Source: Planctomycetia bacterium (GTDB lineage: Bacteria > Planctomycetota > Planctomycetia > Pirellulales > UBA1268). Taken from it: a DNA stretch of 64,000 nt. Positions 638-61,855 of the stretch are shown piece after piece; the stretch's first letter is position 1; each line of letters starts with the position of its first letter. The stretch is taken from contig JAIOPD010000106.1 in assembly GCA_021414115.1 (NCBI GenBank), positions 24,147 to 88,146 on the forward strand, in the 5' to 3' direction. The translations under genes and the position numbers were made by a program. The notes under the pieces are model-generated. The model had not been told where the DNA came from, did not search any database, and saw only the letters and a program-made list of their open reading frames with translations.

Positions 638-1369
638 TCACCCGACGAGGATCACGAAGAGTTCCTTCGGGCCGTGGGCGCCAAGCACGAGAATCCGCTC
701 GATATCGCCGGTGCGGCTCGGACCGGTGATGAACGAGAGCATGCTCGGCATTCTCCCGGCGTGCTTCGTCCGAATCGCGTCGAGGGCGTCGCCGAGCGTG
801 GCCACGATCTGGTCGAGCGTGACGATCACGATATGGACATGCGGCAGGATCGAGAGCGCCCGACCGCCGCAGCTCGCACTCGACACCAGGATCGAGCCGG
901 TCTGGGCGATCGCCGCATCACAGGCCGTGATCCCGGCGTCGCAGGCCTCGAGGGCATCCTTGTCGAAGCTGGTGGAATCAAGGCGGTAGGAGTCGCAGCC
1001 AAGGGTCGCGGCCACGGGCTCGACGGCGGGGTGGGTATGCCAGGCCACCCGCTTCCAGCCCCGCTCACGGACGAGCGCCGCCACCTGCGCGGCGGCGGCG
1101 GTCAGATCCGCCGCCCGTTGAACTTCTGCCCGGAGTTTTCCGAGATTCTCGGTGAGGATCGCCAGTCGCTCCTCCGCGGTCTCGCCCCCGTCCGGGAGCC
1201 ACGGCCGCGCCACCTCCACCGGAAGAATCGTGAGGCTGTCCGGCCCGGCGGGTGCCGCCGCCACGGCCGCATGCGACTTCATGTGCGGCAGCGGCGCCGG
1301 AACACGGAGCGCCTCGCGAACCCGCGCGAGGATCGTGTCACGAGCCGTGGTGTCACCGCCTGCCGTCAT
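638..1369 (-). CDS. lutC: lactate utilization protein C (LUD domain, YkgG-like)
   Basis: Track ORF 638..1813(-) trimmed to ATG at 1369 (MTAGGDTTARDTILARV...), which overlaps the lutB stop by 4 nt. Third gene of a lutA-lutB-lutC arrangement. C-terminal ...SFITGPSRTGDIERILVLGAHGP is typical of LUD-domain proteins. Confidence 0.85.
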   Translation of the reverse strand: MTAGGDTTARDTILARVREALRVPAPLPHMKSHAAVAAAPAGPDSLTILPVEVARPWLPDGGETAEERLAILTENLGKLRAEVQRAADLTAAAAQVAALVRERGWKRVAWHTHPAVEPVAATLGCDSYRLDSTSFDKDALEACDAGITACDAAIAQTGSILVSSASCGGRALSILPHVHIVIVTLDQIVATLGDALDAIRTKHAGRMPSMLSFITGPSRTGDIERILVLGAHGPKELFVILVG

Positions 1370-2799
1370 GACCGCGCTCTCCACTGGCTGCGAAAACTTC
1401 GCGCCGGAGCGGCGGGCAGATCCCGCGTGGCCAGCCAGTCGCGGAGGAGCGGCGGGCGGAGTTTCTTCAGGAGCCAGAGCGACTTGCGAAACATCGCGCC
1501 GCCGGCCGCGAAGAGCCAGGGCCGGCTCGCCACCATCACGAACATCCGGTGCCCCAGCCGCTCGAGGCGGCTCGGCGACGTGGCAGCGGCGTTGCGGCGG
1601 TTGTGCAGGAGGTGGTGGTGGATGTCGATCCGCACCGGGCAGGCGTCGGTGCAGGCGCCGCAGAGGGAACTCGCTCCCGAGAGATGATTCCAGTCGGCCA
1701 GACCCCGCAGGTGCGGCGTGATTACCGAGCCGATCGGGCCCTGGTAGGTGGTGCCGTAGGTGAAGCCGCCCACGTTCTTGAAGATCGGACAGACGTTCAA
1801 GCACGCGCCGCAACGGATGCAGTGGAGGCTGTCCCGCTGCTCGGGATCGGCGAGGATCGCCGTCCGCGAGTTGTCGAGCAGCACGAGGTGCATCTCCTCG
1901 GGCCCGTCACACTCGCCCGGTCGTCGCGGGCCGGCGTAGAGCGTGTTGTAGCAGGTCATCGGCTGGCCGGCCCCGGCGGTGGCGAGCATCGGCAGAAGTA
2001 CGGCGAGATCGTCGAGATGCTCGACCACCTTCTCTATTCCCGAGATCGCAATGTGCACCCGCGGCAACGCCGCGGTCAGCCGGGCATTGCCCTCGTTCTC
2101 GGTGATCGAGATCTGGCCCGTCTCGGCGACCAAGAAGTTGGCCCCCGTGATCCCGACGTCGGCATCGACGTAGAGCCGGCGCATGTGCCGCCGGGCGATC
2201 ATCGTGAGCTCTTCGGGGCTGTCGGTCGGCGGCGTGCCGAGATGCTTGCCGAAGAGGTCGCTGATCTCCTCGCGACGGACGTGCATGCAGGGGAAGACAA
2301 AGTGATACGGCGGCTCGCCCCGGAGCTGCTGGATGAACTCGCCGAGGTCGCTCTCGACGACGCCGTAGCCGTCCTGCTCCAGGGCGGCGTTCAAGTGAAT
2401 CTCCTCGCTCGTCATGCACTTGCTCTTGATGACGGCCTTCGCCTTCGCGTCACGCAACAGCTCGAGGATGATCGTGCGGGCCTCGTCGGCGGTGCGGGCC
2501 CAGTGCACCCTGCCGCCGTTGGCCTCGAAGTTGGCCACGAACGTCGGGAGCAGCTCGTCGAGCCGGTTCACGGCCGACCACTTGGCGAGGCTGGCGGCAT
2601 CCCGGGCCTGCTCCCAGTCGCGAAAGCGGGCCTTCTGCGCGTCGCGACTGGTGTAGTAGCCGCCGAGGGCCTTGCGGACGAACGCCCGATGGCCCGTGTC
2701 GCGGACATGCTCCGCGGCATCGTGCAGGAACTTTTTCTTGGCGAGCCTGGGAGTCTCGGCCTCGAACGCGTGGGGTGTGGTGTCGGCGCCGGGCGTCAT
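1366..2799 (-). CDS. lutB: lactate utilization protein B (4Fe-4S iron-sulfur protein, YkgF-like)
   Basis: Track ORF 1366..3030(-) trimmed to ATG at 2799 (MTPGADTT...), a 4-nt overlap with the lutA stop. Two ferredoxin-type clusters are present: CIRCGACLNVCP and CGACTDACP. Confidence 0.9.
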   Translation of the reverse strand: MTPGADTTPHAFEAETPRLAKKKFLHDAAEHVRDTGHRAFVRKALGGYYTSRDAQKARFRDWEQARDAASLAKWSAVNRLDELLPTFVANFEANGGRVHWARTADEARTIILELLRDAKAKAVIKSKCMTSEEIHLNAALEQDGYGVVESDLGEFIQQLRGEPPYHFVFPCMHVRREEISDLFGKHLGTPPTDSPEELTMIARRHMRRLYVDADVGITGANFLVAETGQISITENEGNARLTAALPRVHIAISGIEKVVEHLDDLAVLLPMLATAGAGQPMTCYNTLYAGPRRPGECDGPEEMHLVLLDNSRTAILADPEQRDSLHCIRCGACLNVCPIFKNVGGFTYGTTYQGPIGSVITPHLRGLADWNHLSGASSLCGACTDACPVRIDIHHHLLHNRRNAAATSPSRLERLGHRMFVMVASRPWLFAAGGAMFRKSLWLLKKLRPPLLRDWLATRDLPAAPARSFRSQWRARS

Positions 2800-3518
2800 G
2801 CGTCGGCTCCCACAAGCACCTCGGCCAGATGGATCGTCCGGGGCTTCTTGCCGTGGCGCGAGAGCCAGCCGTCGAGCTGCAGCTGGCACGACGGATCGCT
2901 CGAGACGATGTAGTCGCACTCGGTGCGGGCGAGCGAGCCGCCCTTCACCTCGGCCATGGCGGTCGAGATCATCGGGTATTTGACACTGAAGAGCCCGCCG
3001 AAGCCGCAGCAGCTCTCCGGCTCGTCGCACTCCACGAGCTCGAGATCGCGGACGGCCCGGAGCAACTGCCGCGGCGCGTCCTTGATGCGGAGCTCACGCA
3101 GACCGTGGCAGCCGTCGTGATAGGTGACCTTGTGGGGGAAGCGGGCCCCGACGTCGGTCACGCCGAGCTTGTCGACCAGGAACTCGCCGAACTCGAACGT
3201 CCGGGCGGCGAGATCGAGGGCGGCCGTTTCATGGGGCGTGCCGGTGAGAAGCTGCGGATAGAAGACCCGCATCATCGCCACGCAAGAGCCGCTGGGGCCC
3301 ACGACCGCCTCGGCGCCCGCGAACACCTCGACCGCCCGGATCGCCACGGCGCGGGCCTCGTCCCAATAGCCCGCGTTGAAACTGGGCTGGCCGCAGCAGG
3401 TCTGGGCCGGGCGAAACTCGCAGGAATGGCCGAGCCGTTCGAGCACGCGGGCCACGGCGAGACCGACCCGGGGGGTCATCTGATCGACGAAGCACGGAAT
3501 GAAGAGGCTGACGTTCAT
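2796..3518 (-). CDS. lutA: lactate utilization protein A (Fe-S oxidoreductase with CCG domains, YkgE-like)
   Basis: Trimmed to ATG at 3518 (MNVSLFIPCFVDQ...). CCG motifs QTCCGQPSFNAG and ESCCGFGGLFSVKYP. Confidence 0.9.
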   Translation of the reverse strand: MNVSLFIPCFVDQMTPRVGLAVARVLERLGHSCEFRPAQTCCGQPSFNAGYWDEARAVAIRAVEVFAGAEAVVGPSGSCVAMMRVFYPQLLTGTPHETAALDLAARTFEFGEFLVDKLGVTDVGARFPHKVTYHDGCHGLRELRIKDAPRQLLRAVRDLELVECDEPESCCGFGGLFSVKYPMISTAMAEVKGGSLARTECDYIVSSDPSCQLQLDGWLSRHGKKPRTIHLAEVLVGADA

Positions 3519-3626
3519 ACCGAACGTTAGTGTAGCCGCCCAGCAACCCCCGGGCAGCGGCCACATTCCGTCGCGCTGCCGCTCGCTTTCAGCCAGCGGT
3601 GGCCCGTGAGCCAGATGACCGCGGGA

Positions 3627-5666
3627 TCAGCTGCGGATGCCGACAACGCGCGACCAGGCGAGTTCGGACGGCCAGGTGCCGAACTGCGTGTTGGTGAAGG
3701 TGGATCCGGTGCTGCCGAGCACCCGCCAGATGCCGCTGGTGCCGTTGCGGACGGCGATGTCGCTCTTGCCGTCGCCGTTGAAGTCACCGACGGTGGCGAA
3801 CTGCCAAGGGACGGTGGTTCGCAGCACACCCCAGGTCGAGGTGATGAAGGAGGTGCCGGTGCTCAGCGAGACCCACCAGGCCCCGTCACTCGTCCGCTGG
3901 CCGGCGAGATCGGCGCGGCCGTCGGCGTTGAAGTCGCCGCTGACCACGTTCTGCCACGGCATGTCGCTCGGCCAAGTGCCGAACGAGGATTTGGTGAAGG
4001 TGGATCCCGTGCTGGCGAGGATCCACCAGATGCCGCTGGTGCCGTTGCGGACGGCGACGTCGCTCTTGCCGTCACCGTTGAAGTCGCCGGCCGTGGCGAA
4101 CTGCCAGGCGACGTTGGTGCGGAGAACTGCCCAGCTGGAGGTCGTGAAGGCGGAGCCGGTGCTCAGCGAGACCCACCATGCCCCGTCACTTGTCCGCTGG
4201 CCGACCAGGTCGGTCCGGCCATCGGCGTTGAAGTCGCCGCCGACCACGTTCTGCCAGGGTGTGCTCGACGACCAGGTGCCGAACTGGGAGGCGGTGAATG
4301 CGGAGCCGGTGCTGGTGAGAACACGCCAGATCCCGCTCGTGGCATTGCGGATGGCGATATCAGCCCGGCCATCAGCATTGAAGTCGCCGACGGTCGGGAA
4401 CTGCCAGGTGACGTCGGTCCGCTGGGTCGCCCAGAGCGTGGGCGCCGCTGCCGGGCCGGATGCCGGCGTCAGCGTCACCCACCAGCCACCGTTGGCGGCC
4501 CGCGTCGCCACATCGCCCCGGCCATCGCCATTGAAGTCGCCGGCCAGAGTGTCGACCCACGTGGTGCCTGCCGGGAGTGTGGCGAGCGGGGCGGTCGCGA
4601 AGGCGGTGCCCGTCGAGCGGCCGATGACCAGCGAGTCGCCGGCAAGCCCGACGATCGCATTGGGGACGACGGCGGGCGACGCCACCGTCACCGTGAAGGC
4701 ATCCTCGACGAATCGGGCGGCATCGAACACGCTCGTCGCACGAACCGTGACGGTTCCAGTGCCCACCGCCCCCGGGGCATAGACCAGCTGGAGACTGCCA
4801 TCGGCTTGAATCGTGGGCGTGACGAGCGCCGGCGAGTTGGTCGCCACGGAGTAGAGAAGTTCGCCCACGCGGGCGATCGTCGGAAACTTCACGAACTGAT
4901 TGGAAGTGAGCGCGGCGATTTCGACCGGGGCGTTCACGAACGACGGATCCTGGCTCGGATTCGCCCCCGGCACGTCACGCAGCGGGATGCTGTCGTAGGG
5001 CGACGCATAGCCGAACCGCGGCACGGCGGCGATGGCATCGACCGCGGCCATGCCGCCGCCCAGCACCCGGCCGAACGCCGTGAAGCCGCCGTTTTGAGTA
5101 TCGAGCTGGGGCCCCAGAGACTGCGTGGCGTTGGTGTCGGAGAGGTTGAAGAACCACTGGTTGGTGGCGCTGTTGGGATTGGTCCCGAGTTTCGCCATCG
5201 CGATCGTGCCGCGGACGTTGGTGTTGCCCGGCTCGTTCACCACCGCTGCAAACTGCGTGACGTTATCGATCGAGATTGGGCTGCCGCCGGTGACCGTGAA
5301 GCCGCCCCCCTGCACCACGAAGCCGGGAATGGAGCGGTGGATGAACGTGTTGGTGTAGTGGCCGCCGTCCACGTAGGAGAGGAAGTTGGCGACGGTGGCA
5401 GGCGTGGTCCGCGTGCGGTCGGCGCCCGGGGCGTCGAAGAGTTCGACGAACACCTTTTGATACGGCGACGGCGAGTTGACGTCGAACCGCACGACCGTGC
5501 CGGTGACGTCGGTGTCGTCGTAGCGGTTGGCCAGCGAGATGATCGCCGGGCCGGCGTTCGGCGCGGCCGTGACGTCGGGCAGGGCGGCGACCACGTCGAC
5601 GGCCAGCGCGCGGCGGTTCTCGAGCCGTTCGATCCGCCCGAAAAGCGTCCGCTTCCGCTTCATCAT
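3627..5666 (-). CDS. secreted cyclophilin-type peptidyl-prolyl isomerase fused to six FG-GAP/VCBS-like repeats
   Basis: N-terminus is [23 protein letters not shown]. Cyclophilin core: [15 protein letters not shown]...GTIAMAK...NQWFFNL...FGRV. Six GDFN(G/A)DG(R/K)xD repeats follow in the C-terminal 300 aa. Confidence 0.85.
3687..4286 (-). repeat. two tandem 300-bp units (each encoding two FG-GAP repeats) inside the PPIase gene, with a more diverged unit at 4287-4544
   Basis: Residues 461-560 and 561-660 align without gaps and are roughly four-fifths identical by eye ([26 protein letters not shown]... vs [26 protein letters not shown]...). The same periodicity shows in antisense track ORF 3637..4782. 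Confidence 0.7.
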
Positions 5667-6666: not shown

Positions 6667-7851
6667 TCAGGCCTTGCTCGCGGCGACGACCTTCTGGGCG
6701 GCGTCGGTGAGCCCGTCGGCGGTGATGATTTTTGCCCCGCTCGCAGCGAGGATCTTCTTGCCTTCCTCGACCTCGGTTCCTTCGAGCCGCACGACCAGCG
6801 GCACCGTGAAGCCGACCGTCTTCGACGCCTCGACGAGCGCCGTGGCGATCGTCGTGCATCGCATGATGCCGCCGAAGATGTTGACCAGGATCGCCTTGAC
6901 GTGCGGGTCGGAGAGGATAATCCGGAAGGCTTCGGTGACGGCCTTCACGTCGGCACCGCCGCCCACGTCGAGGAAGTTGGCCGGCTCGCCGCCGTGATAC
7001 TTCACGAGGTCCATCGTGCTCATGGCGAGGCCGGCGCCATTCACGAGGCAGCCGATCGTGCCGCTGAGCTTCACGTAGGAGAGGCCCGCCGCCGCGGCCC
7101 GCGTCTCGGACGGATCCTCCTCGGCCTCGTCGCGGAGGGCCGCGAGGGCGGGGTGGCGAAAGAGCGCGTTGTCGTCGAACGTCATCTTGGCGTCGAGCGC
7201 GACGAGCGAGCCGTCCTTCGTGAGCACGAGCGGGTTGATCTCGAGGAGCGAGGCGTCGAGATCGACGAACGCCCGGCAGAGCCGGCGGAAAAACGTCTCG
7301 GCATGCCGCCAGCTTGCCGTGGGCAGGCCGAGCTTCGAGGCGAGCACGCGGGCCTGGTAGGCCCCGAGCCCGCGGTCGGGATCGAAGGGCTCGCTGAGGA
7401 TGAGCTCCGGTGTCTTGGCGGCCACCTCCTCGATGTCCATGCCGCCGGCGGTGCTCGCGATCAGCACGGGCGAACCCACGCGGCGGTCGACGAGCACGGC
7501 GCAGTAGAGCTCCCGCTCGATCGCACAGCCGCTCTCCACGAACACCTGCCGCACGACCTGCCCCTCGGGGCCGGTCTGGATCGTGACGAGCGTGTTGCCG
7601 AGCAGGCCCTTGGCAATGCGCTCAGCGTCGGGGGCACTCTTCGCCAGTTCGACGCCCCGCTGGTCGCCGCCCTGTACCTTGCCCTTGCCGCGGCCGCCCG
7701 CGTGAATCTGCGCCTTCACGGCACAGACCGGCGTGCCGAGCGCGGTGAATGCGGCAGCGGCCTCGGCGGGGCTGCGGGCGACGCGTCCGGCGAGCACGGG
7801 CACGCCGGCGGCCCGGAGGAGGTCCTTGGCCTGGAACTCGTGGATCTTCAT
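6667..7851 (-). CDS. sucC: succinyl-CoA synthetase beta subunit
   Basis: Track ORF 6667..8787(-) trimmed by 312 Arg/Pro-rich codons to ATG at 7851 ([19 protein letters not shown]...). ATP-grasp and ligase-CoA regions are readable throughout. Confidence 0.95.
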
Positions 7852-7964
7852 CGCGGGGTGGCCTCGCGGGGCGGGCGGAAAGGCAATGGGGTTGGGCGAA
7901 TATCCCACGAAAGCCGCGACCCGCAACCCGGAGCGTCGCCGAGGCCCGGTGGAGGGCAAAAGCG

Positions 7965-9095
7965 TCAGCGGGCCGGCACTGCGGCGGCGGCCAGGGCGGC
8001 CCGCCATTGCTCCGGGCTGGTCGCCGCGAGCCGGTCGCGATGCCCGCGGGCGGCGGTGAGCGGGCAGGCCGCGAGGTAGCCGGCAACGGCCCGGCGGACG
8101 AGTGGGTCGTCGGCCCCCAGGGAATCCCAGAGCATCGCGACCCGATCGCAATCCTCCCAGCGGCCGTAGCGGGCAAGGTCGATCGCGCAGTCGGCGGCCA
8201 CGGCCGGATTCACGAGCAGATCGGCCGTCGCGGTCGCGACCAGCTGGCGAGGCACACGCTCCGCAAGACTTTCCCAGGCAAACCGCAGCGCCGCCAGCGC
8301 ATGCCGCGCGTCGCCGGGCCGTGTGTCGGCGGCGAACAGGCCCCTGCTCCGGAGGCGTTCGAGTCCTGCTCCGCCCTCGGCGACGAGCACTCCCGCGAGG
8401 ATCCCGTCGAAGCCGGCCCGCAGATCGTTTGCCGGCGCCACGACTGCCGCGTGGAGGGCGTCGAGGCATCGCCGCCGCACAGCGGCGTCGGCAGTGCGGT
8501 CGGCCACGATGCCCAGAGCCAGTCCAAAGAAGCCGCGGCGGCTTTGGTCGAGGTTCGGCTCCCGCACCCAGGCCGCCAGTCGCACGGGATCGAGCGCATC
8601 GGCGGCCTCTCGCACCGCGGCGAATGGCGCGAGGCCAAACTCCGTGAAGGCGTCGGCGGCGATCGCGGGATTCGGATGCTCGAGGCGGGATGCGAACCAG
8701 CGGAGCCTGCTGGCCGCCGGCTCTTCGACGGCGGGCGCCGCGGCGACGTGACCGATCAGCGCCTCGTCGGCGGCGATGGCTTCCCATGAGACCGTGGCAT
8801 CGTGCCGCGTGCCGAAGAGCAGGGCCGTGCCCTCGATGGCCGAGGGCACCCGGGCCGGGAGCATGCCCGCGGCGGGGTCGCCCGCGCCGCGCAGGACCAC
8901 CGCCATGGTGAAACGCTGGACGAGCAGGCCGTCGGGGTCGCGGGCTGCCGACGCTGCGGATTCACCCACGGCGACCATGTCGGCGGTGTCACGACGTTCG
9001 GCGAGCGACCGGCCCACCACGCCGCAGAACGGGCAGGCAAAAGTCGCCGCCATTCCGAGCCAGGCGGCGATCGTGAGCAGGCAGCGGATCGGCAT
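7965..9095 (-). CDS. secreted helical-repeat (HEAT/ARM-like) protein with a CPFC motif right after the signal peptide; paralog B
   Basis: Track ORF 7965..9725(-) trimmed to ATG at 9095 ([25 protein letters not shown]...), which overlaps the AIM24 stop by 1 nt (TGATG). Aligns along its length with the 13409-14917 protein, for example [14 protein letters not shown] vs DAYDEFAIAPYADV, and AGYLAACPL vs VNYLRACPL. Confidence 0.6.
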
Positions 9096-9763
9096 CAGCC
9101 TGCGGCCGCCGTGGCCGGGTCGGAGTTTAGTCGGGCCCGCCAGTAGGGCGTGGTGCAGAGGAGCAGTTTCCCGGTGCCGCGATAGCAGTAAGCGAGCTTC
9201 TGGCCCGACAACCAGTAGGCCAGCCACGACCGCGCGGGCCGGCGGACCGAGAGCGTGATGCCACTGGTGTGGGCGACGACATACGGCCCGTCGACGATCA
9301 CCTGGTCGTTCGTCAGTTCGACCTCTTCGACGGGGCCGGGGACCGAGAGCACCACCTGCCCCTCGCCCTTCAGCGCGGTCTTGTACCAGAAGAGTCCCTG
9401 GTCGGCCCAATACGCGGTCATGAATCGCTCCCGATGCACCGAGAGCTTCACCTCGCCGTCGCTCGCCCAGAAACACTTCATGTCGAGGATCCACCGCTCG
9501 CCCGGCCGGATCGGCATGATGTGGAAGCCGCCCAGCGAGGAATCGAGATACACCGTGCCCGTGCCGTGGTAGCGGGGCCGCAGCAGTGACTCGTCGGAGA
9601 ACAGCGACTCCCACCAGGCCTTGAGGCTCGGGAAGGGCACGTCCATCGTGATCGCGCCCTTGAAGTGGTTGAGCGCGCCCCGCTCCGCACGGACGTCGTC
9701 GTCGTCGAGTCCGACCTTCACCCACCGCATGCCCTCGGTGTGTTCAACCTCAAACGTCGCCAT
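9095..9763 (-). CDS. AIM24/DUF124 family protein
   Basis: Track ORF 9095..10408(-) trimmed to ATG at 9763 (MATFEVEHTEGMRWVKV...). Family-like segments: GTGTVYLDS..GGFHIMPIRPGERWIL, GEGQVVLSVPGPVEEVEL, YRGTGKLLLCT. Start lies 14 nt inside the upstream gene. Confidence 0.6.
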   Translation of the reverse strand: MATFEVEHTEGMRWVKVGLDDDDVRAERGALNHFKGAITMDVPFPSLKAWWESLFSDESLLRPRYHGTGTVYLDSSLGGFHIMPIRPGERWILDMKCFWASDGEVKLSVHRERFMTAYWADQGLFWYKTALKGEGQVVLSVPGPVEEVELTNDQVIVDGPYVVAHTSGITLSVRRPARSWLAYWLSGQKLAYCYRGTGKLLLCTTPYWRARLNSDPATAAAG

Positions 9764-11060
9764 CGATGTCGACCTCCGCACCGCGGGTGATGCCCCCCTT
9801 CGTCCAGTCGACGCTCCAGCCGGGAAAGGCGATCTCCGGATAGGGATCGGGATCGATCGGGGCCGGCGAGGTGTGCACGATGTCGAACTGCCGGTCGCCG
9901 CGGATGCGGCCGATCCGGCAGAACTTCGTCGTGTGCTGGGTCTTGGGATCGAGACGGACCGGGCCCCCCGGGCCGGCGAACTCGAGCCCCTCGCGGAACA
10001 CCTGCCGCACCGCCTCGGTCTCGAACGAACCGGCCTTCTCGACGGCCTGTTTCCAGAGGTGCACCAGACACCAGTCGGGCTCCATCGGGTCGCCCGTGAC
10101 GCGGTCGTGGCCGAACTCGCGGCGAAAGCCGGCGATCCATGCGCGATTGGCCGGCGTGTCGAGGCTCTGGAAGTAGCACGACACGGCGTAGTGACCCTTG
10201 ACGTGCCCTGGCAGCAGGCTTCGCAGTTCGTCCTCGGCGATGCTCGTGGAGACGACCGGCACCGTGGCCGGATCGACCTTCGCCTCGGCGAGCGCCTCAA
10301 AGAGGCCGATGTTCGAGTCGCCGTTGACCGTATTGAGCACGCAGTCGGCGCCGGATTCCCGAATCTGCTTGACGACGCCGGAGAAGTCGCGGTCGCCGAG
10401 CGGCACATAGGCCGTGCCCACGGGCTTCAGGCTCTTCGCCGCGAGATACTTCTTCGCGATGAAGTTGGCCGTCCGAGGATAGACGTAGTCCGAGCCGACG
10501 AGGAAGATTTTTTTCCTGAGCCCGCCGGCCGCGCTCGCGAGCCAATCGAGTGCCGGCAGGATCTGCTGGTTGGGCACCATGCCGCCGTAGACGACGAAGG
10601 GGGACGACTCGTTGCCCTCGTACTGCACGGAATAGAAGAGGAGCTTCTTCGCCTCCTCGAAGATCGGCAGCACGGCCTTGCGGCTGGTGCTCGTCCAGCA
10701 GCCGAACACGGCGACGGAGCCTTCATCGAGGAGTCGTCGGGCCCGCTTCGGGAACAGGTCCACCCGCGACCGCGGGTCGGGGGCGTGGGGCACGATCTGC
10801 CGGCCGAGGAGTCCGCCGGCCGCGTTGATCTGCTCGAAGGCGTGGAGCTCGATGTCGCGGAGCCCCGTCGCACTGATGGCTAGCGGCCCGGTCTGCGAGT
10901 GGAGGAGACCCACGTTCACCGTCTTGGCGCGGGGCGGGATGCCGAGCGAGCAGCCGGCGAAGAGTGCCGGCGACAGGGCCCGGGCCGCCGCGAGCGTGGC
11001 CGCGGTCCCCCGGCGGAGGGCGTCGCGGCGTGAGAACCCGCTCCCTGGTGTGTCGCTCAT
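9750..11060 (-). CDS. Tat-signal lipoprotein, type-1 periplasmic binding protein of the UrtA/AmiC (urea or short-chain amide) kind; no cognate permease or ATPase genes nearby
   Basis: SRRDALRRGTAATLAAARAL...FAGC gives a twin-arginine motif plus lipobox. The body reads like UrtA/FmdD/AmiC proteins (VGLLHSQTGPLA, FGCWTSTSRKAVLP, LFYSVQYEG, GSDYVYPRTAN, ...QFDIVHTSPAPIDPDPYP). Confidence 0.75.
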   Translation of the reverse strand: MSDTPGSGFSRRDALRRGTAATLAAARALSPALFAGCSLGIPPRAKTVNVGLLHSQTGPLAISATGLRDIELHAFEQINAAGGLLGRQIVPHAPDPRSRVDLFPKRARRLLDEGSVAVFGCWTSTSRKAVLPIFEEAKKLLFYSVQYEGNESSPFVVYGGMVPNQQILPALDWLASAAGGLRKKIFLVGSDYVYPRTANFIAKKYLAAKSLKPVGTAYVPLGDRDFSGVVKQIRESGADCVLNTVNGDSNIGLFEALAEAKVDPATVPVVSTSIAEDELRSLLPGHVKGHYAVSCYFQSLDTPANRAWIAGFRREFGHDRVTGDPMEPDWCLVHLWKQAVEKAGSFETEAVRQVFREGLEFAGPGGPVRLDPKTQHTTKFCRIGRIRGDRQFDIVHTSPAPIDPDPYPEIAFPGWSVDWTKGGITRGAEVDIDGDV

Positions 11061-11863
11061 TCGTCTTCCATCCGCTTGTAGAGAACTTCGAAGGGCTCCG
11101 CCGAGATGCTCACGTCGCCCCGGAACGGCTGGTTCATGTCGAAGATCAGGTGCATCATCGTGCCGAGGTAGGCGGCCAGGATGCCGCCGAGCAGCAGCTG
11201 CGTGATGAACCGCATGTCAAAGAGCCAGCAGATCGCGATGTTGAGGATCGCGCCCAGGATCATCACGTACCACATCGAGGACGGAAGCGACGACTTCACG
11301 GATAAGAGCCGCATCTGCCGCGCCTCCAGAAACTCGTTCAACTGCCGCAGCACCTCGGCGTGGAGGATCTGCTCGGCCGGCGTCTGTGGCTCAAAGTCGA
11401 GGAGCTTGTCGTAGAACGCCGCGGCGCGGATCGTGCCCTCCTCCGGGATGATGCCCCGCTGCTGCAGCGGCCAGGCATATTTGATGACGTACCGCGTGTA
11501 GTCGCGGAGCAGCCAGCGGAGGTTTTGCCGGTGGGGCTCCGGGTAGCGGGAGACGTCTTCATAGAGCGCCGAAAGCGATGCCGCCTCCCGGGTCACGTTC
11601 GCCCCCGCCTCGGCCACGTTTTGGTAGGCGGTGACGGCGATCAGGCCGAGCAGCAGGCCGTAGAACACGCAGAAGCAGGAGAGCACGTAGCCGACGATGT
11701 CGTTGGAGCCGGCGGTGGATTTGACGAACTGCCGCAGGATCGGCCGCAGCAGGATCGAGCCGGCCCAGTAGAAGCCGACGAACGTGCCGATGAAGAGCAG
11801 CGACAGCCGGAAATGGGGAATGTCATAGAGCCAATACCACGACTCGGGCGAGAACATGTGCAT
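11057..11863 (-). CDS. integral membrane protein, DUF4239-like
   Basis: Track ORF 11057..12085(-) trimmed to ATG at 11863 (MHMFSPESWYW...; ATG at 11857 is also possible). Two N-terminal and two C-terminal hydrophobic helices flank a helical soluble region (REAASLSALYEDVSRYPEPHRQNLRWLLRDY...). Its stop overlaps the next gene's start by 4 nt. Confidence 0.55.
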   Translation of the reverse strand: MHMFSPESWYWLYDIPHFRLSLLFIGTFVGFYWAGSILLRPILRQFVKSTAGSNDIVGYVLSCFCVFYGLLLGLIAVTAYQNVAEAGANVTREAASLSALYEDVSRYPEPHRQNLRWLLRDYTRYVIKYAWPLQQRGIIPEEGTIRAAAFYDKLLDFEPQTPAEQILHAEVLRQLNEFLEARQMRLLSVKSSLPSSMWYVMILGAILNIAICWLFDMRFITQLLLGGILAAYLGTMMHLIFDMNQPFRGDVSISAEPFEVLYKRMEDE

Positions 11864-12156
11864 GCTTGGTGGCCGCCGGGCGGTGCCCTCCACGGATCGT
11901 ATCGACGCTGCCGCGATCGTAGCAGCATCCCACCTGCTCGGGCCAGCAGCGGGAAGCGACCGTGCCTGGCGCGGCTTCGACACCGTTCGAGCCCCGGCCG
12001 GCTGCGGGACGGCATGAGGTTCCTCGCGGGAGTATTTCGCATGGCGCCTGGCGAGGGTTTGACCTCCGACGGGCGAAATCCTCAACGCTCGTCACGCTCA
12101 CGCCGATCCCTTCGCCTCGTCCGGCGAGGGGCGGGGAGACGGGCGGTTGACGCGGT

Positions 12157-12705
12157 CTATTGCACGCTTTCCCCGTCGAGCGCGTAGATCGCGAGGTGTT
12201 TTCCGTCGGGGCCGCGGAGTTCCTCGACCTTGAACCGACCCGCCACGGCCACGGGCCGGATCGAAAAATCGGCGGTTCTGCCCGGCTGCATGCGGACGAC
12301 GACGCAGTCATGCAGGGCGGCGCCGGGGCCGAAGCAGCATTCCTGGTTGTCGCGGACGAGCACGAACTGCGTCAGGCCGCTCTGCTGGAAACTCGGAAGG
12401 ATGTAGCCGCGAATCCGCACCCGCTCTTGTTCGAGCGCCGTGACTCTCTTGGGAAGCAGATCGCGGGTGAAGGGGTCGCCCTTCGGCATCTCGAGCTTGA
12501 TGTCATCGAACGTGATCTCGCGGGGCTGCCGCGAGTCCGCCGGCAGACGCTCCGCGGAGGGTGGCGGGGAGGCGGATGGTTTCTCGACGAGCCGGGGCGC
12601 CGCGGCACGGTCGGCAGGTGTCCCGCCGCCACAGCCGGCGACGAGCAGGGTGAGGACCCATGGGGCCCACCAGTCCTTCGCGTGCAGGCGTCTGGTTGCG
12701 TCCAT
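12157..12705 (-). CDS. lipoprotein with DUF3299-like C-terminal domain (vicinal CC motif)
   Basis: Lipobox LLVAGC. C-terminal GYILPSFQQSGLTQFVLVRDNQECCFGPGAALHDCVVVRM...VAGRFKVEE matches the pattern I associate with DUF3299. Start is 1 nt after the upstream stop. Confidence 0.6.
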   Translation of the reverse strand: MDATRRLHAKDWWAPWVLTLLVAGCGGGTPADRAAAPRLVEKPSASPPPSAERLPADSRQPREITFDDIKLEMPKGDPFTRDLLPKRVTALEQERVRIRGYILPSFQQSGLTQFVLVRDNQECCFGPGAALHDCVVVRMQPGRTADFSIRPVAVAGRFKVEELRGPDGKHLAIYALDGESVQ

Positions 12706-12706
12706 G

Positions 12707-13399
12707 TCACCGCACGAACGCGTTGTCGAGGTGGTAGAGCACGCCGCCGGCGAGGTCCGCGGTGCCCATGGGCTGCACCCGAAACCGGCCCGCGACCTTC
12801 GTCAGTCGGGGGGTGAAGTCGATGCCCCTCGGCTCGGCGAGTTGCACCAGCACGCGGTCGGTGATCTTCGGATTGCCGCCGAAGCAGCAGTCGCCCTGGT
12901 CGCGGACGAGCAGAAACTGCACGAGTCCGTGCTGCTCCTTCCCCGGATAGATGTAGCCCTTGAGGAGCACGTTGTGCCCGTCGAGCGCCCGGGCCGCGTC
13001 GGGCACGCTCGTCGGCGGATCACCCTCGGCGGGCTGAAGCATCGCATAGCTGAGCCGCTCGAAGCCCTCGGGAAGTTCGGCGGCGTATTCGCGGGCGAGC
13101 GACACGAGGCCGCCGACCAGCACGATCGCAGAGACCGCAAGCGCCCCGGTCGCCAGCGGCGTGCCCGTCAGGTCGAGCGGCCGAGTGGCGATGTCGCGCA
13201 GGGCGACGAGCGCGAGCGCGATGCCGATCGCCGGCACCGCGGCGAACCACCAGCCGAAGAAGACGAGCGGCGAGACCAAAGCGACGGCCGCGGCGGCGAT
13301 GGCCGCTCCCGACAGGGCGCGGTAGGCCTCGCCGTTGTCACGGGCGGTGGCGCCCGGGTGGGAGGTTCGCGACGGCGAATCGAAGAGGCCAGTGCCCAT
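12707..13399 (-). CDS. membrane-anchored DUF3299-like protein (N-terminal TM helices plus the same CC-motif domain)
   Basis: Hydrophobic segments AAIAAAAVALVSPLVFFGWWFAAVPAIGIALALVAL and LATGALAVSAIVLVGGLVSLA. These are followed by GYIYPGKEQHGLVQFLLVRDQGDCCFGGNPKITDRVLVQL...VAGRFRVQP, paralogous to 12157-12705. Confidence 0.6.
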   Translation of the reverse strand: MGTGLFDSPSRTSHPGATARDNGEAYRALSGAAIAAAAVALVSPLVFFGWWFAAVPAIGIALALVALRDIATRPLDLTGTPLATGALAVSAIVLVGGLVSLAREYAAELPEGFERLSYAMLQPAEGDPPTSVPDAARALDGHNVLLKGYIYPGKEQHGLVQFLLVRDQGDCCFGGNPKITDRVLVQLAEPRGIDFTPRLTKVAGRFRVQPMGTADLAGGVLYHLDNAFVR

Positions 13400-13408
13400 G
13401 GGAGCGGT

Positions 13409-14917
13409 TTAGCGGTCCCCGGCCGGAACGGGCCGCATCGCCGCGCGGGAAACGATGGCGATCGCGAGGACCACGGCCGCCCAGAGGAGCCATTTCCAGC
13501 GGCGGCTCACGGTGGCCGCGGTCTCCCGCTCAGGCTGTGAAGCGTCACGGCCGGGCACGTCGTCGGTGGCGTCGTCGTCGCCCAGCACCGGAGCCACGGC
13601 CAGGGAGCCGGGCGATCCTTCGGCTGGGGCGGTGATTGGTTCGTTCGGCCCGCGGGGGCCCGCGTTGTCATCCTCGTCGCCGGACGGTGTGGCCGCCGTG
13701 GTGCCGGAAGCGGTGAGGCCGGCAATGCCGGCGAGCGTCGCAGCCCGGCGGACAGCCTCGGGGTCGATCGTCTCCAGTTCCTTGACCGCGGCCGCGGCCT
13801 CTGGCAGGGGACAGGCCCGGAGGTAGTTCACGATCGGTTCGCGGACGAAAATGTTGTCGGCCTTCGCCTCCTTGAAGAGCGTCACGAGCGTGTCGACGGC
13901 CGACCAGTCCTGCCAGCGGGCGAGATCGGCGATCACGAGGTCGGCGAGTTTCGGTTCCTCGAGCAAGAGCCGCAGCGAGGCGAGCACGCGGTCGCGGGGC
14001 ACGAGATCGGACTCCTCCCCGAGGAACCGCAGCGCCATCACCGCGGCATAGGTCTCGGTGAACGGCACCTCGCGGGGCATGCCGTCGGCGGACGTGCGGT
14101 CGAGGAACAGCCGGTCGACGAGGTCGAGAGCCTGCGGGCCCTCGAGCGCCACGTAGCAGGCGATCAGCGCGTCGAGCCCGCTGCGGGCCTCGGCTTGCTC
14201 AGGCGAGAGGCCGGTGCCCGCGAGGAGTTTTTCGATCCGCTCGGCGTCGTCTTTCGATCCGCAGACACCGAGCATTGTTGCATAGAGCCGCCGACGATTG
14301 GCCTGCACCTTCGGGTCTTCGATCCAGGCGAGCAGTTTCGCCGGGTGCATCTGCTCCTTGATGCTGCGGACGTCCGCGTAGGGGGCGATGGCGAACTCGT
14401 CGTAGGCGTCGCGGGCCAGCGTCTCGTCTTCGTCTTCGAGATGCTCCTGGAAGAAGGCGAGCCGCTCGGGCCCCTTCTCCGGCAGTTCGCCGAGTTTGCG
14501 GATGTAGGCCACCGCCCGGTCGCTGACCCGCACCGGGCTCGACCAGACGAGGTCCGGCGGCTCCACGCCCATGAGCAGAAAGAGCATGCCGACCGGCTTC
14601 TCCTCGAGCATGATCGTCTCGATCGGCTGGGGATCTCCGCCCGTCAGGCCCGCCTCGGCCACGAGGTCGGCACCCTTGAGCACCTCGACCACCTCGAACT
14701 TGCCCTTGGGGAGCGGCCCCTCGGCCCGCGGCGACAGGGCGCCGGCCGGCGGCGGCTCGACGAGCTTGGCGATCACCGCCGCCTGGCTCTGGGCGATTTC
14801 CTGGGCGAACGTCAGCGACACCGCGGAGCAGAAAGGGCAGGCACGAGCTGATCCCGCGACCGCCACGATCGCAACGCTGACGACAACCGGCACGAAGCAG
14901 CGGATCAGTGGATTCAT
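13409..14917 (-). CDS. secreted helical-repeat (HEAT/ARM-like) protein with CPFC motif, acidic/Pro-rich linker and C-terminal TM anchor; paralog A
   Basis: Signal peptide ...VAVAGSARACPFCSAV. Helical repeat body, a low-complexity tail (TPSGDEDDNAGPRGPNEPITAPAEG...) and a terminal helix WKWLLWAAVVLAIAIV. Confidence 0.6.
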   Translation of the reverse strand: MNPLIRCFVPVVVSVAIVAVAGSARACPFCSAVSLTFAQEIAQSQAAVIAKLVEPPPAGALSPRAEGPLPKGKFEVVEVLKGADLVAEAGLTGGDPQPIETIMLEEKPVGMLFLLMGVEPPDLVWSSPVRVSDRAVAYIRKLGELPEKGPERLAFFQEHLEDEDETLARDAYDEFAIAPYADVRSIKEQMHPAKLLAWIEDPKVQANRRRLYATMLGVCGSKDDAERIEKLLAGTGLSPEQAEARSGLDALIACYVALEGPQALDLVDRLFLDRTSADGMPREVPFTETYAAVMALRFLGEESDLVPRDRVLASLRLLLEEPKLADLVIADLARWQDWSAVDTLVTLFKEAKADNIFVREPIVNYLRACPLPEAAAAVKELETIDPEAVRRAATLAGIAGLTASGTTAATPSGDEDDNAGPRGPNEPITAPAEGSPGSLAVAPVLGDDDATDDVPGRDASQPERETAATVSRRWKWLLWAAVVLAIAIVSRAAMRPVPAGDR

Positions 14918-14933
14918 GAGATCATTGTAGCCG

Positions 14934-16322
14934 TCACCCGAGCCACTTCGCGACGTCGGTCCGATAGGCCGCCAGCGCCGGGAGCAGCGCGGCCAGGATT
15001 GCCAGGGCGATTAGGAACGGCACGAGGAGCAGTTCGGCGGCAGGGGCCGCCGACAGCAGGCTCGCCGAGACGCCGGCATTGGTGGTGATCAGGGGGCCGA
15101 TGGCGGCGACCAGCATGTGGCCCAGCGCCCAGCCGACGAGGCCACCCCCCACCGCCAGCAGCACCGCCTCGATGAGCACCGTGGCAAGGACGTGGCTGCG
15201 GCGGGCGCCCAGGGCCCGCATCACGGCGACGTCTCGGCTCCTCTCGAGCGACGAGCCGACCATGCTCACGAGGATGCCGATTGCCGACACGATCACGACG
15301 AGCGTCGTCACGAGCAGGAGCAGCAGTTCCAGCGGCCGCACAAAGAGGCCGAGGAGCAGGCTGATCTCGCGGATCGGCTCGGCGGCCTGACCATCGCGGC
15401 CCTCGTTGATCGCGGTCCTCAGCCCCATCGCCGTGAGCTCGGCAGGAAGGCCGGGCAGCGCGGCCGTCTCGACGAGGATCGCCGTCACCTCGCGCTGGTT
15501 GGTCGGGAGCGGCGCGGGGGATGCCGGATGGTCCTCCTCGGCCGTCGGCTTCACCGCCACCCCCTCGCCCTCGACGGGCTTCGCATGTCCCTCCTGCAGG
15601 TAGAAGCCCTCCATGTTCACATACACGCCTCGATCAACGGGCGTGTCAGTCCGCGCGAGGATGCCGGTGACCGTGAACGGGTCGTGCACGAGGCCGTCGT
15701 CTGCGCCGTGCGTGGGGGCGAACGGGTCGCCCGCTTTGAGCCCGAGTTTCGCGGCGACGTCGCAGCCGAGCACGCCGCCAAAAAACTCGTCGTCGCGGAA
15801 GTTGCGGCCGGAGGCGAACGCGAAGGGCCGCAGCTCGGAGCGGGCATCGGCCAGGCCGACGCTCCGCCGCAGCCAGCGGCCGAGCCCCGCAGGCGTGCCC
15901 CCTCCGCCCCAGGTGAGGCTGTCGAAATAGGCGGCATTCGTGCCGACGACACGGAAGCCCCGAAAATAGTCCCCCATGCAGATCGGGACGGCGGTTTGCA
16001 CGCTGCCGGCATATCGTCCCGCGGCGCCGTCGGCCCGCGCCGTGGCCGGCAGAAACTCCTCGTAGAAGGCCCAGGAGATGTTCTCGATCGGCTTGCTGAT
16101 CAGATAGACGCTGTTCAAGACCAGCTGCAGCGGGCTCCCCTTCGCCCCCACGATTATGTTGTAGCCCAGCCCGGAGCCGGAGTTGAACGCCTGCTTGACG
16201 ATGTCGCCGATCACGAGCGTGGAGACGACGAGCGCCACGCCGAGGGCGAGGGAAAGCGCCGTGAGGCCGCTCGTCAGGAGCCGCTGCCGGATGTTGCGCC
16301 AGGCGATACCGAACAATGACAT
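14934..16322 (-). CDS. ABC transporter permease, FtsX/MacB-LolC type with a large periplasmic domain
   Basis: TM1 (LLTSGLTALSLALGVALVVSTLV), then a soluble loop of about 270 aa, then three C-terminal TM helices, the typical FtsX-domain layout. Sits 19 nt downstream of the ATPase gene. Confidence 0.8.
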   Translation of the reverse strand: MSLFGIAWRNIRQRLLTSGLTALSLALGVALVVSTLVIGDIVKQAFNSGSGLGYNIIVGAKGSPLQLVLNSVYLISKPIENISWAFYEEFLPATARADGAAGRYAGSVQTAVPICMGDYFRGFRVVGTNAAYFDSLTWGGGGTPAGLGRWLRRSVGLADARSELRPFAFASGRNFRDDEFFGGVLGCDVAAKLGLKAGDPFAPTHGADDGLVHDPFTVTGILARTDTPVDRGVYVNMEGFYLQEGHAKPVEGEGVAVKPTAEEDHPASPAPLPTNQREVTAILVETAALPGLPAELTAMGLRTAINEGRDGQAAEPIREISLLLGLFVRPLELLLLLVTTLVVIVSAIGILVSMVGSSLERSRDVAVMRALGARRSHVLATVLIEAVLLAVGGGLVGWALGHMLVAAIGPLITTNAGVSASLLSAAPAAELLLVPFLIALAILAALLPALAAYRTDVAKWLG

Positions 16323-16341
16323 GGGCGAGCCGTTCGTGGGG

Positions 16342-17028
16342 TCAGCCGTGGTGGGTCGCAGCGCGGTTGAAGTCTTCGAGCCGGAGCCGCCGGGGAAACC
16401 GGGCGGCGACCTCGGGGGAGTGCGTCACGACCAGGAGCGCGACGTCCTGCTCGGCGCAGGTGTTTTTCAGCAGCTCGATCACCTGATCCTGATGCGCCGT
16501 GTCGATGCTCGCCGTCGGCTCGTCGGCGAGGATCACCCGCGGCCGATTGGCGAGCGCACGGGCCACCGCCACCCGCTGCTGCTGGCCGATCGAGAGCTCG
16601 CCCGGCTTGTGATGGAGGCGGTGGGAGAGCCCCACCGAGGCGAGCAGATCGGCGGCCCGCCAGCGGTCGGGCCTGCCCGACCCGAACGACATCGCCACGA
16701 GCACGTTTTCCAGCGCCGTGAACCCCGGCAGGAGGTTGAACTGCTGGAACACGAGGCCGAGCGTGTCGGCCCGCAGCCGGTCGGTCGCGGCTTCGCCCAG
16801 CCGTGTGAGGTCGTGGCCATCGACGACGACCCGTCCCGCGTCGGGCCGCATGATCCCGGAGATCACGTGGAGGAGCGTCGACTTGCCGGAGCCGCTCTGG
16901 CCGGTGAGGGCGCACTGTTCCCGCTCGGCGACCGTGAAGGCGTCGATGTCGAGCACCGCCACCGTCTCTCCGCCCGGCATGGCAAACGACTTCTTGACCT
17001 GCTCGAGTTCGATGACGGGGGTGGGCAT
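16342..17028 (-). CDS. ABC transporter ATP-binding protein (MacB/LolD-like)
   Basis: Track ORF trimmed to ATG at 17028 ([15 protein letters not shown]...). Walker [10 protein letters not shown], signature LSIGQQQR, Walker B VILADEPT. Confidence 0.9.
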
Positions 17029-22200: not shown

Positions 22201-22273
22201 AGCGGGTGATGGGATTCGAACCCACGACAACCACGTTGGCAACGTGGTGCTCTACCAACTGAGCTACACCCGC
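22201..22273 (-). tRNA. tRNA-Gly (anticodon GCC), 73 nt, CCA not encoded
   Basis: The reverse complement reads GCGGGTG-TA-GCTC-AGTTGGTA-GAGC-A-CCACG-TTGCCAA-CGTGG-TTGTC-GTGGG-TTCGAAT-CCCAT-CACCCGC-T. This gives a full cloverleaf, a TTCGAAT T-loop and a U discriminator; the next bases are TCG. Confidence 0.9.
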
Positions 22274-40018: not shown

Positions 40019-40224
40019 AGACTTTGGTGGCTCGGGGCTGCCCGTGCCCCGAGGGCCGGACGTTCGCGTCGGGCATCACGCCCGCCGCTCTCTGCATGTC
40101 CGCTGCGCTTCGGCATCCTGCCTTCGCTCGCTCCCATAGCCCGGCTCTCGGGGCTCGGGGCAGCCCCTCGCGGGTTCTCGATGGTGTCCGTTGCCGGGGA
40201 AGCCCGGAGCGCAAGCGACGGGTA
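40019..40224. repeat. Copy 2 of the structured intergenic repeat (arms 40034-40059 / 40141-40167; lacks part of the 5' flank; arms degenerate)
   Basis: Begins 5 nt after the TAG stop at 40012-40014. GACTTTGGTGG, the arm, the CTGCGCTTCGGCATCCTGCC core and the GTTGCCGGGGAAGCCCGGAGCGCAAGCGACGGGTA tail align with copies 1 and 3. Confidence 0.8.
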
Positions 40225-40421
40225 TCCGGGTCGTGAGGCGTGCCAGCGGCGGGGAGCCGATTGAGGTTGAGGACGGAGTTCCCGACGCTCTTCGAGCGTT
40301 CGCCGACCGCCTTTGCCTCCCCGCCCGGAAATCGGTCCCCGTTTCGGTCATACTTGCGGGTCAGGGCGTCGGCGGTCGGTTCACGACCCTTCCCCGCCCC
40401 CAGGACCACAATAGGCACACC

Positions 40422-41456
<1,035 letters not shown>

Positions 41457-41514
41457 CACGCGTGGAGCGAGCCCGCGATGATCGTGGTCACCTTTTTACT
41501 TTTCCCTGAGCCGC

Positions 41515-46642: not shown

Positions 46643-46708
46643 TGATCATGCTGTTGATATTCGGGCCACGCGCGACGCGCAGCGTCGACATTCCACGAGG
46701 CAACTCTC

Positions 46709-61788: not shown

Positions 61789-61825
61789 GGGGAGAGTCCT
61801 TCTGGGGTTGGCAGGCGGGAACTTC

Positions 61826-61855
61826 CTGAGGGAAATCTGGCTGAGGGAAATCTGG
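61826..61855 (-). promoter_or_regulatory. perfect tandem 15-bp direct repeat (coding-strand CCAGATTTCCCTCAG x2) 38-67 nt upstream of the glnN ATG
   Basis: Plus strand ctgagggaaatctgg at 61826-61840 is repeated exactly at 61841-61855, inside the 247-nt glnN upstream region. The regulatory role is inferred from position only. Confidence 0.3.

Follow-up and report, generated by a model that had tools for sequence, protein, structure and literature searches.

Background

Periplasmic binding proteins serve ATP-binding cassette (ABC) transporters, tripartite ATP-independent periplasmic (TRAP) transporters and tripartite tricarboxylate transporters (TTT), or they communicate with kinases and chemoreceptors. 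The partnership of a binding protein with a channel-fold protein has been inferred in bacteria so far only from the genomics of Cys-loop channels, where ligand gating was deduced from periplasmic binding protein (PBP) and Cache domains that are fused to the channel or encoded in its operon (Tasneem et al., PMC549065). Among the receptors of ABC transporters, the urea-binding protein UrtA of Prochlorococcus has a set of conserved urea-pocket residues, namely W120, S122, Y141, Q144, E146, Y190, N246 and S274, whose importance for the binding of urea was demonstrated by mutagenesis (PMC10392092). In this article, we analyze a stretch of 64,000 nucleotides from a Planctomycetia bacterium of the order Pirellulales (contig JAIOPD010000106.1, positions 24,147 to 88,146 of the forward strand), referred to below as the window, in which the gene for an UrtA-type binding protein lies between genes for a DUF4239 (PF14023) membrane protein and an AIM24 protein and is followed by a fourth gene, which we call CPFC2.

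Classical bestrophins, the structural relatives of the DUF4239 protein that are discussed below, have their N- and C-termini and their helical bundle in the cytoplasm. A review of signaling by binding proteins mentions neither ion channels nor urea (PMC8050422), and our literature searches, as far as the literature is searchable, returned nothing relevant for DUF4239, for AIM24 together with bestrophin, or for bestrophin together with urea and a binding protein; a function of bacterial AIM24/DUF124 is likewise not reported there. An earlier reading of this locus from its letters (the sequence-only reading) had remarked that no described pathway combines the four families, and the searchable literature indeed holds no description of such a combination.

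We report that the conserved unit at this locus consists of three genes (DUF4239, UrtA-type binding protein and AIM24) rather than four. We further propose that the binding protein provides ligand recognition as a subunit of a pore or receptor with the bestrophin fold, that is, of a urea-sensing, ligand-gated device and not of an ATP-driven importer, and we give this proposal an even chance of being correct. Its grounds are the linkage of the genes, the permutation of their order, gene fusions, conservation of the ligand pocket, export signals and the predicted fold.

Results

Conservation of the gene order in related planctomycetes

Two samples of related loci were compared with the window. 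For sample 1, one genome per species was searched with the binding protein, which gave 80 loci, mostly from Pirellulales metagenome-assembled genomes (MAGs), at 68-92% identity; their gene content was determined by tblastn of all window proteins against the loci, and the denominators given below are the numbers of loci with enough sequence. Sample 2 was collected from lake metagenomes, anchored on an alignment of DUF4239, and contains close relatives only (77-95% identity), adding no diversity. Both samples together amount to ~160 related planctomycete loci.

DUF4239 is located directly upstream of the binding-protein gene in 67/67 loci of sample 1 and AIM24 directly downstream of it in 74/74, while in sample 2 the binding protein is found beside DUF4239 in 57/57 cases and AIM24 in 45/45. 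The junctions are conserved as well: the 14-nt overlap of the binding-protein gene with AIM24 is retained in 68/75 related loci, and DUF4239 and the binding-protein gene overlap or lie at most ~25 nt apart in most relatives. The fourth gene follows a different pattern. CPFC2 is found after AIM24 in 40/57 loci of sample 1 and 28/35 of sample 2, i.e., in ~70-80%, and is absent from the other 17/57 and 7/35, with sucC directly behind AIM24 in 13 of the 17 CPFC2-less loci of sample 1. In the relatives that have CPFC2, 31-384 nt lie between it and AIM24, the 1-nt overlap of the two genes being particular to the genome analyzed here. In locus L008, whose binding protein is 91% identical, a gene for a PIN-domain (VapC-like) toxin (13011-13442, minus strand of that locus) is inserted between AIM24 and CPFC2 on the opposite strand.

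The sequence-only reading had taken all four genes as one translationally coupled unit. The part of this claim that concerns the trio is upheld, since the three genes are coupled and their order recurs in 100% of the close-relative loci; the inclusion of CPFC2 is not borne out in that form, given its presence in ~70-80% of close loci and in 0/9 distant or alphaproteobacterial ones. We treat CPFC2 as an accessory because only ~70-80% of the loci have it, and then after a gap: it is a clade-specific gene that is frequent but dispensable. A stricter alternative would make all four products, CPFC2 included, members of one obligatory complex or pathway. Such an arrangement would fit the translational coupling of the four genes in this genome and the position of CPFC2 behind AIM24 in the majority of relatives, but it is improbable in view of the loci that lack CPFC2, the sucC gene found in its place, the gaps, the opposite-strand PIN gene of L008, the absence of CPFC2 from 9/9 distant or alphaproteobacterial versions and the existence of a paralog, CPFC1, that belongs to the neighboring Zrg-like cluster.

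Several of the contigs sampled (L012, L017, L023, L026, L030, L042 and others) are labeled as Beijerinckiaceae, Chitinophagaceae or 'Candidatus Kuenenia stuttgartiensis' despite carrying a typically planctomycete locus, and the respective MAGs are likely mis-binned or mislabeled.

Ligand pocket and export of the binding protein

The binding protein matches Peripla_BP_5 over its full length (E=2.3e-128) and reaches 419 bits with the NCBIfam model for UrtA (TIGR03407), which is under the cutoff of 492.75. Its best match among PDB sequences is 8tg1 (E=3e-104), followed by the UrtA structures 7s6e, 8hic and 7s6f (~1e-85) and by AmiC (1e-50). The entry 8tg1 is deposited as 'Extracellular ligand-binding receptor', possesses the full UrtA urea pocket and is 63% identical to the UrtA of locus L084; no paper on it was found in the searchable literature. 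L084 and L081 are canonical planctomycete urtA loci, with BPD_transp_2 permeases and ABC ATPases, and in a neighbor-joining tree the window protein is placed among planctomycete UrtA proteins, including those of these two loci.

All eight residues of the Prochlorococcus urea pocket have identical equivalents by alignment (W122, S124, Y143, Q146, E148, Y192, N246 and S273; 8/8 present), and among 121 close homologues each of these positions is retained in 108-121 members; the distant DUF4239-linked copies retain all of them. In AmiC, the W, Q, N and S of the binding protein are replaced by Y, P, V and T. The N-terminus contains a twin-arginine motif (SRRDAL) and a lipobox (LFAGC), both retained in 120/121 family members. 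The segment that spans the hydrophobic core of the twin-arginine translocation (Tat) signal and the lipobox (10950-11012, residues 17-37, AATLAAARALAPALFAGC) is about as conserved as the mature protein (0.85 versus 0.84 across 121 homologues), which is unusual for a signal peptide. Given the conserved pocket residues, the kinship with UrtA, and the conserved Tat signal with its lipobox, urea is the likely ligand and the protein is predicted to be periplasmic and lipid-anchored.

Neither urt permease or ATPase genes nor genes for AmiR, urease or urea amidolyase were found in the whole 64-kb window, and urtBCDE genes were absent within 5-10 kb of the module in the related loci of both samples. 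The sequence-only reading had described a likely receptor for urea or a short-chain amide, with a twin-arginine signal and a lipobox, that lacks urtBCDE and AmiR partners, and on each of these points the alignments, the family comparison and the survey of the window lead to the same result, the pocket being of the UrtA and not of the AmiC type. A cytoplasmic, AmiC-like amide sensor that controls a regulator would share the Pfam family, and AmiC matches at E=1e-50, but such a protein would not be expected to carry the export signals found in nearly every family member or an UrtA-type pocket that differs from AmiC at W/Y, Q/P, N/V and S/T, and no AmiR-like gene accompanies it in the window. Export signals and pocket residues led us to reject an AmiC-type regulator, whose probability we regard as practically nil.

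Linkage in distant homologues and fusion proteins

To reach the genomic contexts of remoter homologues, we used the DUF4239 protein of L083, a Pirellula MAG, as a stepping stone. Four arrangements were found there: 1) DUF4239, binding protein, a 179-aa protein and AIM24 (L086), 2) DUF4239 and binding protein (L087 and L172), 3) DUF4239 and AIM24 with no binding protein (L088 and L171), and 4) the permuted order DUF4239, AIM24, binding protein (L169 and L170). The flanks of these loci are unrelated, and the ABC cluster that precedes the trio in the window is missing from the operon in all of them. The gene for the 179-aa protein in L086 has no assigned family. In the permuted modules, the binding-protein gene is followed by a conserved gene for 67 aa (8979-9182 in L169 and 9033-9236 in L170), with a weak match to LapA_dom in L170.

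The linkage also extends beyond the planctomycetes. A collection of plasmids yielded one informative match, plasmid pOT1-1 of Haematobacter massiliensis (L173). There, 12 nt separate a DUF4239 gene (36% identity) from a downstream AIM24 gene whose product matches the window AIM24 at E=2e-53, and a gene for a TAXI-family binding protein adjoins this pair in divergent orientation. The same divergent layout of TAXI and DUF4239-AIM24 is found on a 709-kb alphaproteobacterial metagenome contig (L180). That the linkage survives permutation, change of flanks and change of phylum argues for functional coupling, with DUF4239 as the hub.

Further evidence comes from a DUF4239 profile compared with 1.84 billion representative sequences, which yielded 6,358 clusters at E<=1e-3, of which 540 reached E<=1e-30. 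Among the best 150 matches are four longer proteins with a C-terminal ligand-binding domain, namely PBP_like_2 of the PstS type in P0363 (DUF4239 domain 51% identical to the window protein), NMT1_3 of the TAXI family in P0388 (38% identical; the cluster has six members on six contigs), sCache_2 in P0369 (41% identical; four members) and Cache_3-Cache_2 in P0392. Their linkers are short and polar, and no fifth hydrophobic segment or signal peptide is present in them. The architecture is that of genuine fusions and not of gene-calling run-ons. The fusions suggest that the binding-protein module and DUF4239 act together physically and that DUF4239 itself is the membrane partner of the binding protein.

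These observations bear on the possibility that the binding protein is an orphan UrtA which works for the adjacent MacB/FtsX cluster or for an ABC transporter whose genes lie elsewhere, DUF4239 and AIM24 being mere neighbors. It is common for additional binding proteins to share a single ABC permease, the tree places this protein within planctomycete UrtA, and in most close relatives the trio begins only 3-160 nt behind the ABC cluster. Against this, adjacency to DUF4239 outlasts permutation, change of flanks and absence of the ABC cluster, DUF4239 relatives are covalently fused to binding-protein domains, and no MacB-type transporter is known to use cluster-B binding proteins. We see only a slender chance that the orphan explanation is right. 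The suggestion made in the sequence-only reading, that the module feeds the neighboring ABC cluster, is unlikely for related reasons: the cluster is of the MacB/FtsX type, and the trio is also found without it in other planctomycetes and in Alphaproteobacteria.

In L173, L180 and a Streptomyces plasmid (L175), DUF4239 adjoins genes of compatible-solute metabolism, including glycine betaine/proline ABC components, a GMC oxidoreductase with an aldehyde dehydrogenase, and BKACE, 3HCDH and AraC/DJ-1 regulator genes resembling a carnitine operon. These neighbors hint that the DUF4239 family may deal with small polar nitrogen compounds.

Predicted fold and orientation of the DUF4239 protein

The sole Pfam match of the membrane protein is PF14023 (formerly DUF4239, now 'Bestrophin-like'; E=1.4e-61), and the classical bestrophin family, PF01062, is not matched. 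An AlphaFold2 monomer model built from an alignment of 62 sequences (predicted local distance difference test, pLDDT, 90.4; predicted template-modeling score, pTM, 0.80) consists of two transmembrane helices, the second of which is very long and continues into a helical bundle, followed by two more transmembrane helices. When the model was compared with the PDB using Foldseek, only bestrophins appeared at the top: KpBest (4wd7 and mutants) superposes with a template-modeling score of 0.62-0.65 over ~280 columns (probability 1.00) at 10-13% identity, and VCCN1 and BEST2 come next. The modeled fold of the DUF4239 protein is thus bestrophin-like.

The protein has four hydrophobic segments, and the loop between the first two contains three K/R and no D/E residues, with R40, P41 and R44 invariant. 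Since the domains fused to DUF4239 relatives are extracytoplasmic and the window binding protein is exported, the C-terminus of DUF4239 is expected in the periplasm. As the protein has four transmembrane segments, this would place the N-terminus and the central helical domain in the periplasm too, and the loops between the first and second and between the third and fourth segments in the cytoplasm. The positive charge of the first loop agrees with the positive-inside rule. Taken together, the fusions and the distribution of charge point indirectly to an orientation opposite to that of classical bestrophins, with the bundle and the termini on the periplasmic side.

The AIM24 protein

The AIM24 assignment is firm at the Pfam level (E=3.3e-32; 112.3 bits against a gathering threshold of 25.7), and the protein remains under the cutoff of the related model TIGR00266 (55.8 versus 96.6 bits). 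Its identity with the DUF4239-linked AIM24 proteins of Alphaproteobacteria and distant planctomycetes is 38-46%, and its sole solved relative by sequence, 1pg6, is a weak match. Judged by sequence, the DUF4239-linked AIM24 proteins are a distinct subfamily. No signal peptide or transmembrane segment is present in any lineage compared. We considered whether AIM24 might be exported by 'hitch-hiking' on the Tat substrate and set the idea aside, since Sec-type signals are found on several DUF4239-linked binding proteins, namely those of L083 and L086 and the TAXI proteins of Alphaproteobacteria.

Coordinates and junctions

The genes and junctions discussed above, together with the upstream cluster, are listed in Table 1. 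The G+C content of the window is 65-71%. The AIM24 start codon sits 14 nt inside the 3' end of the binding-protein gene, and the choice of this ATG is supported by the Pfam model, which begins at residue 4. The four open reading frames and their overlaps of 4, 14 and 1 nt, as well as the start codon on which the 14-nt overlap depends, had been read correctly from the letters. Short overlaps of this kind are common in operons.

Table 1. Features of the locus and of the adjacent cluster (positions in the window)
Feature	Position	Strand	Remarks
DUF4239/PF14023 'bestrophin-like' membrane protein	11057-11863	minus	268 aa, four transmembrane helices
Putative UrtA-type urea-binding protein (PBP type I, cluster B)	9750-11060	minus	436 aa; predicted exported Tat lipoprotein
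AIM24 (PF01987) protein	9095-9763	minus	222 aa
CPFC2, predicted secreted helical-repeat protein	7965-9095	minus	376 aa; accessory, outside the conserved core
ATGA, DUF4239 stop overlapping binding-protein start	11057-11060	minus	read from the sequence
ATGGCGACGTTTGA, 14-nt overlap of binding-protein gene end and AIM24 start	9750-9763	minus	read from the sequence
TGATG, AIM24 stop and CPFC2 start sharing one base (9095)	9095-9097	minus	read from the sequence
293-nt spacer between upstream cluster and trio	11864-12156	minus	sequence
Neighboring Zrg-like cluster (context)	12157-17028	minus	Pfam
ABC ATPase	16342-17028	minus	Pfam
MacB/FtsX permease	14934-16322	minus	Pfam
CPFC1, weak HEAT repeats, C-terminal anchor	13409-14917	minus	
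Two DUF3299 proteins, one lipoprotein, one membrane-anchored	12707-13399, 12157-12705	minus	Pfam

Scans of the region 7600-12400 for sigma-70-like promoters and intrinsic terminators found none, and an Rfam scan of the window matched only the tRNA at 22201-22273, with no riboswitch or other RNA element upstream of the trio. Co-transcription of the trio with the upstream cluster is plausible in those relatives where the spacer measures 3-160 nt.

CPFC2 and the neighboring Zrg-like cluster

CPFC2 has no match in Pfam, and a profile search of PDB sequences was also empty. Aligned over its whole length with CPFC1, it shows 30% identity; CPFC1 has in addition a C-terminal linker and membrane anchor. 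In CPFC2 orthologues the signal peptide ends just before a Cys-Pro-Phe-Cys-Gly sequence, and an ACPLP motif is present at the C-terminus; in this family the CXXC motif would therefore form the mature N-terminus, and the Cys-Pro within ACPLP is invariant. Weak matches to HEAT_2 occur in 22/39 CPFC2 orthologues. An AlphaFold2 model of CPFC2, built from a two-sequence alignment, consists of helical repeats at residues 160-372 (pLDDT 75-94), the N-terminal 118 aa being left unmodeled, and Foldseek returned only generic HEAT/ARM matches for it.

The cluster that contains CPFC1 resembles the ZrgABCDE and PA4063-4066 systems in its ABC ATPase, its FtsX/MacB permease and its DUF3299 proteins, DUF3299 being ZrgE of the zinc-regulated ZrgABCDE system of Vibrio (PMC9817125). 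It differs from them in that ZrgA (DUF2796) and ZrgD are missing and their place is taken by CPFC1, which is HEAT-like and has the CPFC motif at its N-terminus. The cluster at 12157-17028 may be a metal-uptake system in which a CPFC protein replaces ZrgA. In most close relatives, the second DUF3299 gene precedes the trio (59/62 and 65/67 loci).

Other genes of the window

A Bat/MoxR-type cluster occupies 40140-51222 on the plus strand, where an AAA_3 MoxR ATPase, DUF58/VWA and BatA genes are followed by large open reading frames without a Pfam family (44231-46642, 803 aa; 46658-50119, 1153 aa; and 50104-51222). On the minus strand, a secreted 679-aa protein (3627-5666) has a peptidyl-prolyl isomerase domain of the cyclophilin type together with many FG-GAP repeats, and the same strand encodes a type III glutamine synthetase (59617-61893), LUD/CCG (lutABC-like) proteins (1366-3626) and the tRNA mentioned above. 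The remaining surroundings are of a housekeeping nature (sucCD, GAPDH, clpP, trigger factor, ffh and trmD).

Discussion

The mechanism that we propose would operate as follows. The exported, lipid-anchored UrtA-type protein would bind urea in the periplasm and act as the ligand-recognition subunit of the four-helix inner-membrane protein DUF4239, whose helical domain and C-terminus would face the periplasm. AIM24, made in a fixed ratio with the binding protein through translational coupling, would work at the cytoplasmic face, at the two short, invariant and positively charged loops of DUF4239. Docking of the urea-loaded binding protein would then gate a pore or switch a receptor. We infer the docking, the formation of an oligomeric pore, the nature of what crosses or is signaled, and the role of AIM24. 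We favor gating or sensing over conduction of urea for two reasons: in the fusion proteins sensory Cache domains take the place of binding-protein domains, and a channel fold whose PBP and Cache modules are either fused to it or encoded in its operon matches the pattern from which prokaryotic Cys-loop channels were deduced to be ligand-gated.

Conduction of urea would amount to an ATP-independent uptake route, in which the lipoprotein hands urea to a DUF4239 pore, urea crosses passively and is trapped by urease or urea amidolyase, and AIM24 regulates the exit. This possibility draws on the same linkage and fusions as our own proposal, on the intact urea pocket and on the absence of an ABC permease from DUF4239-linked loci, and the PstS-type and TAXI domains of the fusions are classical transport receptors. 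Cache domains, however, are sensory and not known as transport receptors, a passive pore would profit little from a high-affinity binding protein, urease or amidolyase genes were found neither in the window nor in any of the inspected flanks, and proteins of the bestrophin fold are known as ion channels, not as urea carriers. We consider passive uptake a serious but unlikely contender.

Several observations also weigh against a urea-gated pore or receptor itself. About 10% of the binding-protein family vary at Q146 or Y192. The remoter DUF4239 genes (21-33% identity) stand alone in Streptomyces, Mycobacterium, Acidisarcina, Hymenobacter and Burkholderiaceae, and in some of the other loci the binding protein or AIM24 is absent beside DUF4239, so neither of them is strictly obligatory in cis. 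The evidence for the fold is a prediction for a monomer, and the predicted orientation is the reverse of that of classical bestrophins, so that the fold alone cannot imply a pore. With this topology, AIM24 would have two short loops to contact. The support for every member of the module is computational.

On a broader scale, DUF4239 proteins might constitute an unrecognized class of pores or receptors with an inverted bestrophin fold, equipped with interchangeable periplasmic ligand modules (UrtA-type, TAXI or PstS-type binding proteins, or Cache domains) that are fused or act in trans, and with AIM24 at the cytoplasmic face. This generalization is tentative, and we lean somewhat toward doubting it. 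The module provides a testable context for two large families of unknown function, PF14023/DUF4239 (~6,400 clusters at 50% identity) and bacterial AIM24. If the generalization is true, it would add a fourth binding-protein-dependent membrane machinery to the ABC, TRAP and TTT transporters and assign a first function to DUF4239 and bacterial AIM24, the version in the window being gated by urea or conducting it. A highly conserved annotation as 'urea transporter' in abundant freshwater planctomycetes would then not be equivalent to ABC-type urea uptake, which affects the nitrogen-cycling potential that is read from metagenomes. The natural fusions place the ligand module and the membrane module in one polypeptide and thereby lend themselves to simple experiments.

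Among described systems, UrtABCDE (8HIC, 7S6E and 7S6F) is closest with respect to the binding protein, which shares with UrtA the fold, the Pfam family, the export and the complete pocket; identity amounts to 41-47% with UrtA-type proteins of solved structure and to ~51% with those planctomycete UrtA proteins whose genes accompany urtBCD(E). The binding protein differs in scoring under the UrtA cutoff and in being encoded beside DUF4239 and AIM24, never beside UrtB/C permeases or UrtD/E ATPases. The DUF4239 protein resembles bestrophins (KpBest 4WD7, VCCN1 and BEST2; PF01062) in the predicted full-length superposition, the four transmembrane helices and the long second helix that enters the bundle; the low identity, the separate Pfam family and the apparently opposite orientation distinguish it from them, and it is known here from a monomer model.

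With respect to the division of labor, the module can be compared with TRAP and TTT systems, where a binding protein likewise works with a membrane component that is not of the ABC type, and TAXI proteins are found beside DUF4239 or fused to it; however, the module has no membrane protein of the DctQM or TctAB type, and the bestrophin fold is no known carrier fold. It also resembles LuxP-LuxQ, TorT-TorS and the chemoreceptors that work with the maltose- and ribose-binding proteins (PMC8050422), in which a stand-alone binding protein reports its occupancy to a membrane protein and no transporter is fed. In contrast to these sensors, DUF4239 has no kinase, methyl-accepting chemotaxis protein (MCP) or GGDEF output, which leaves a pore or AIM24 as the only candidates for the output. 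The prokaryotic Cys-loop channels (PMC549065) and the ionotropic glutamate receptors (iGluR), including GluR0, offer the parallel of a channel-fold protein that is fused to a PBP or Cache module or encoded beside it. The DUF4239 module departs from them in its unrelated membrane fold, in the position of the ligand domain, which is C-terminal instead of N-terminal, and in the additional conserved partner AIM24, predicted to be cytoplasmic.

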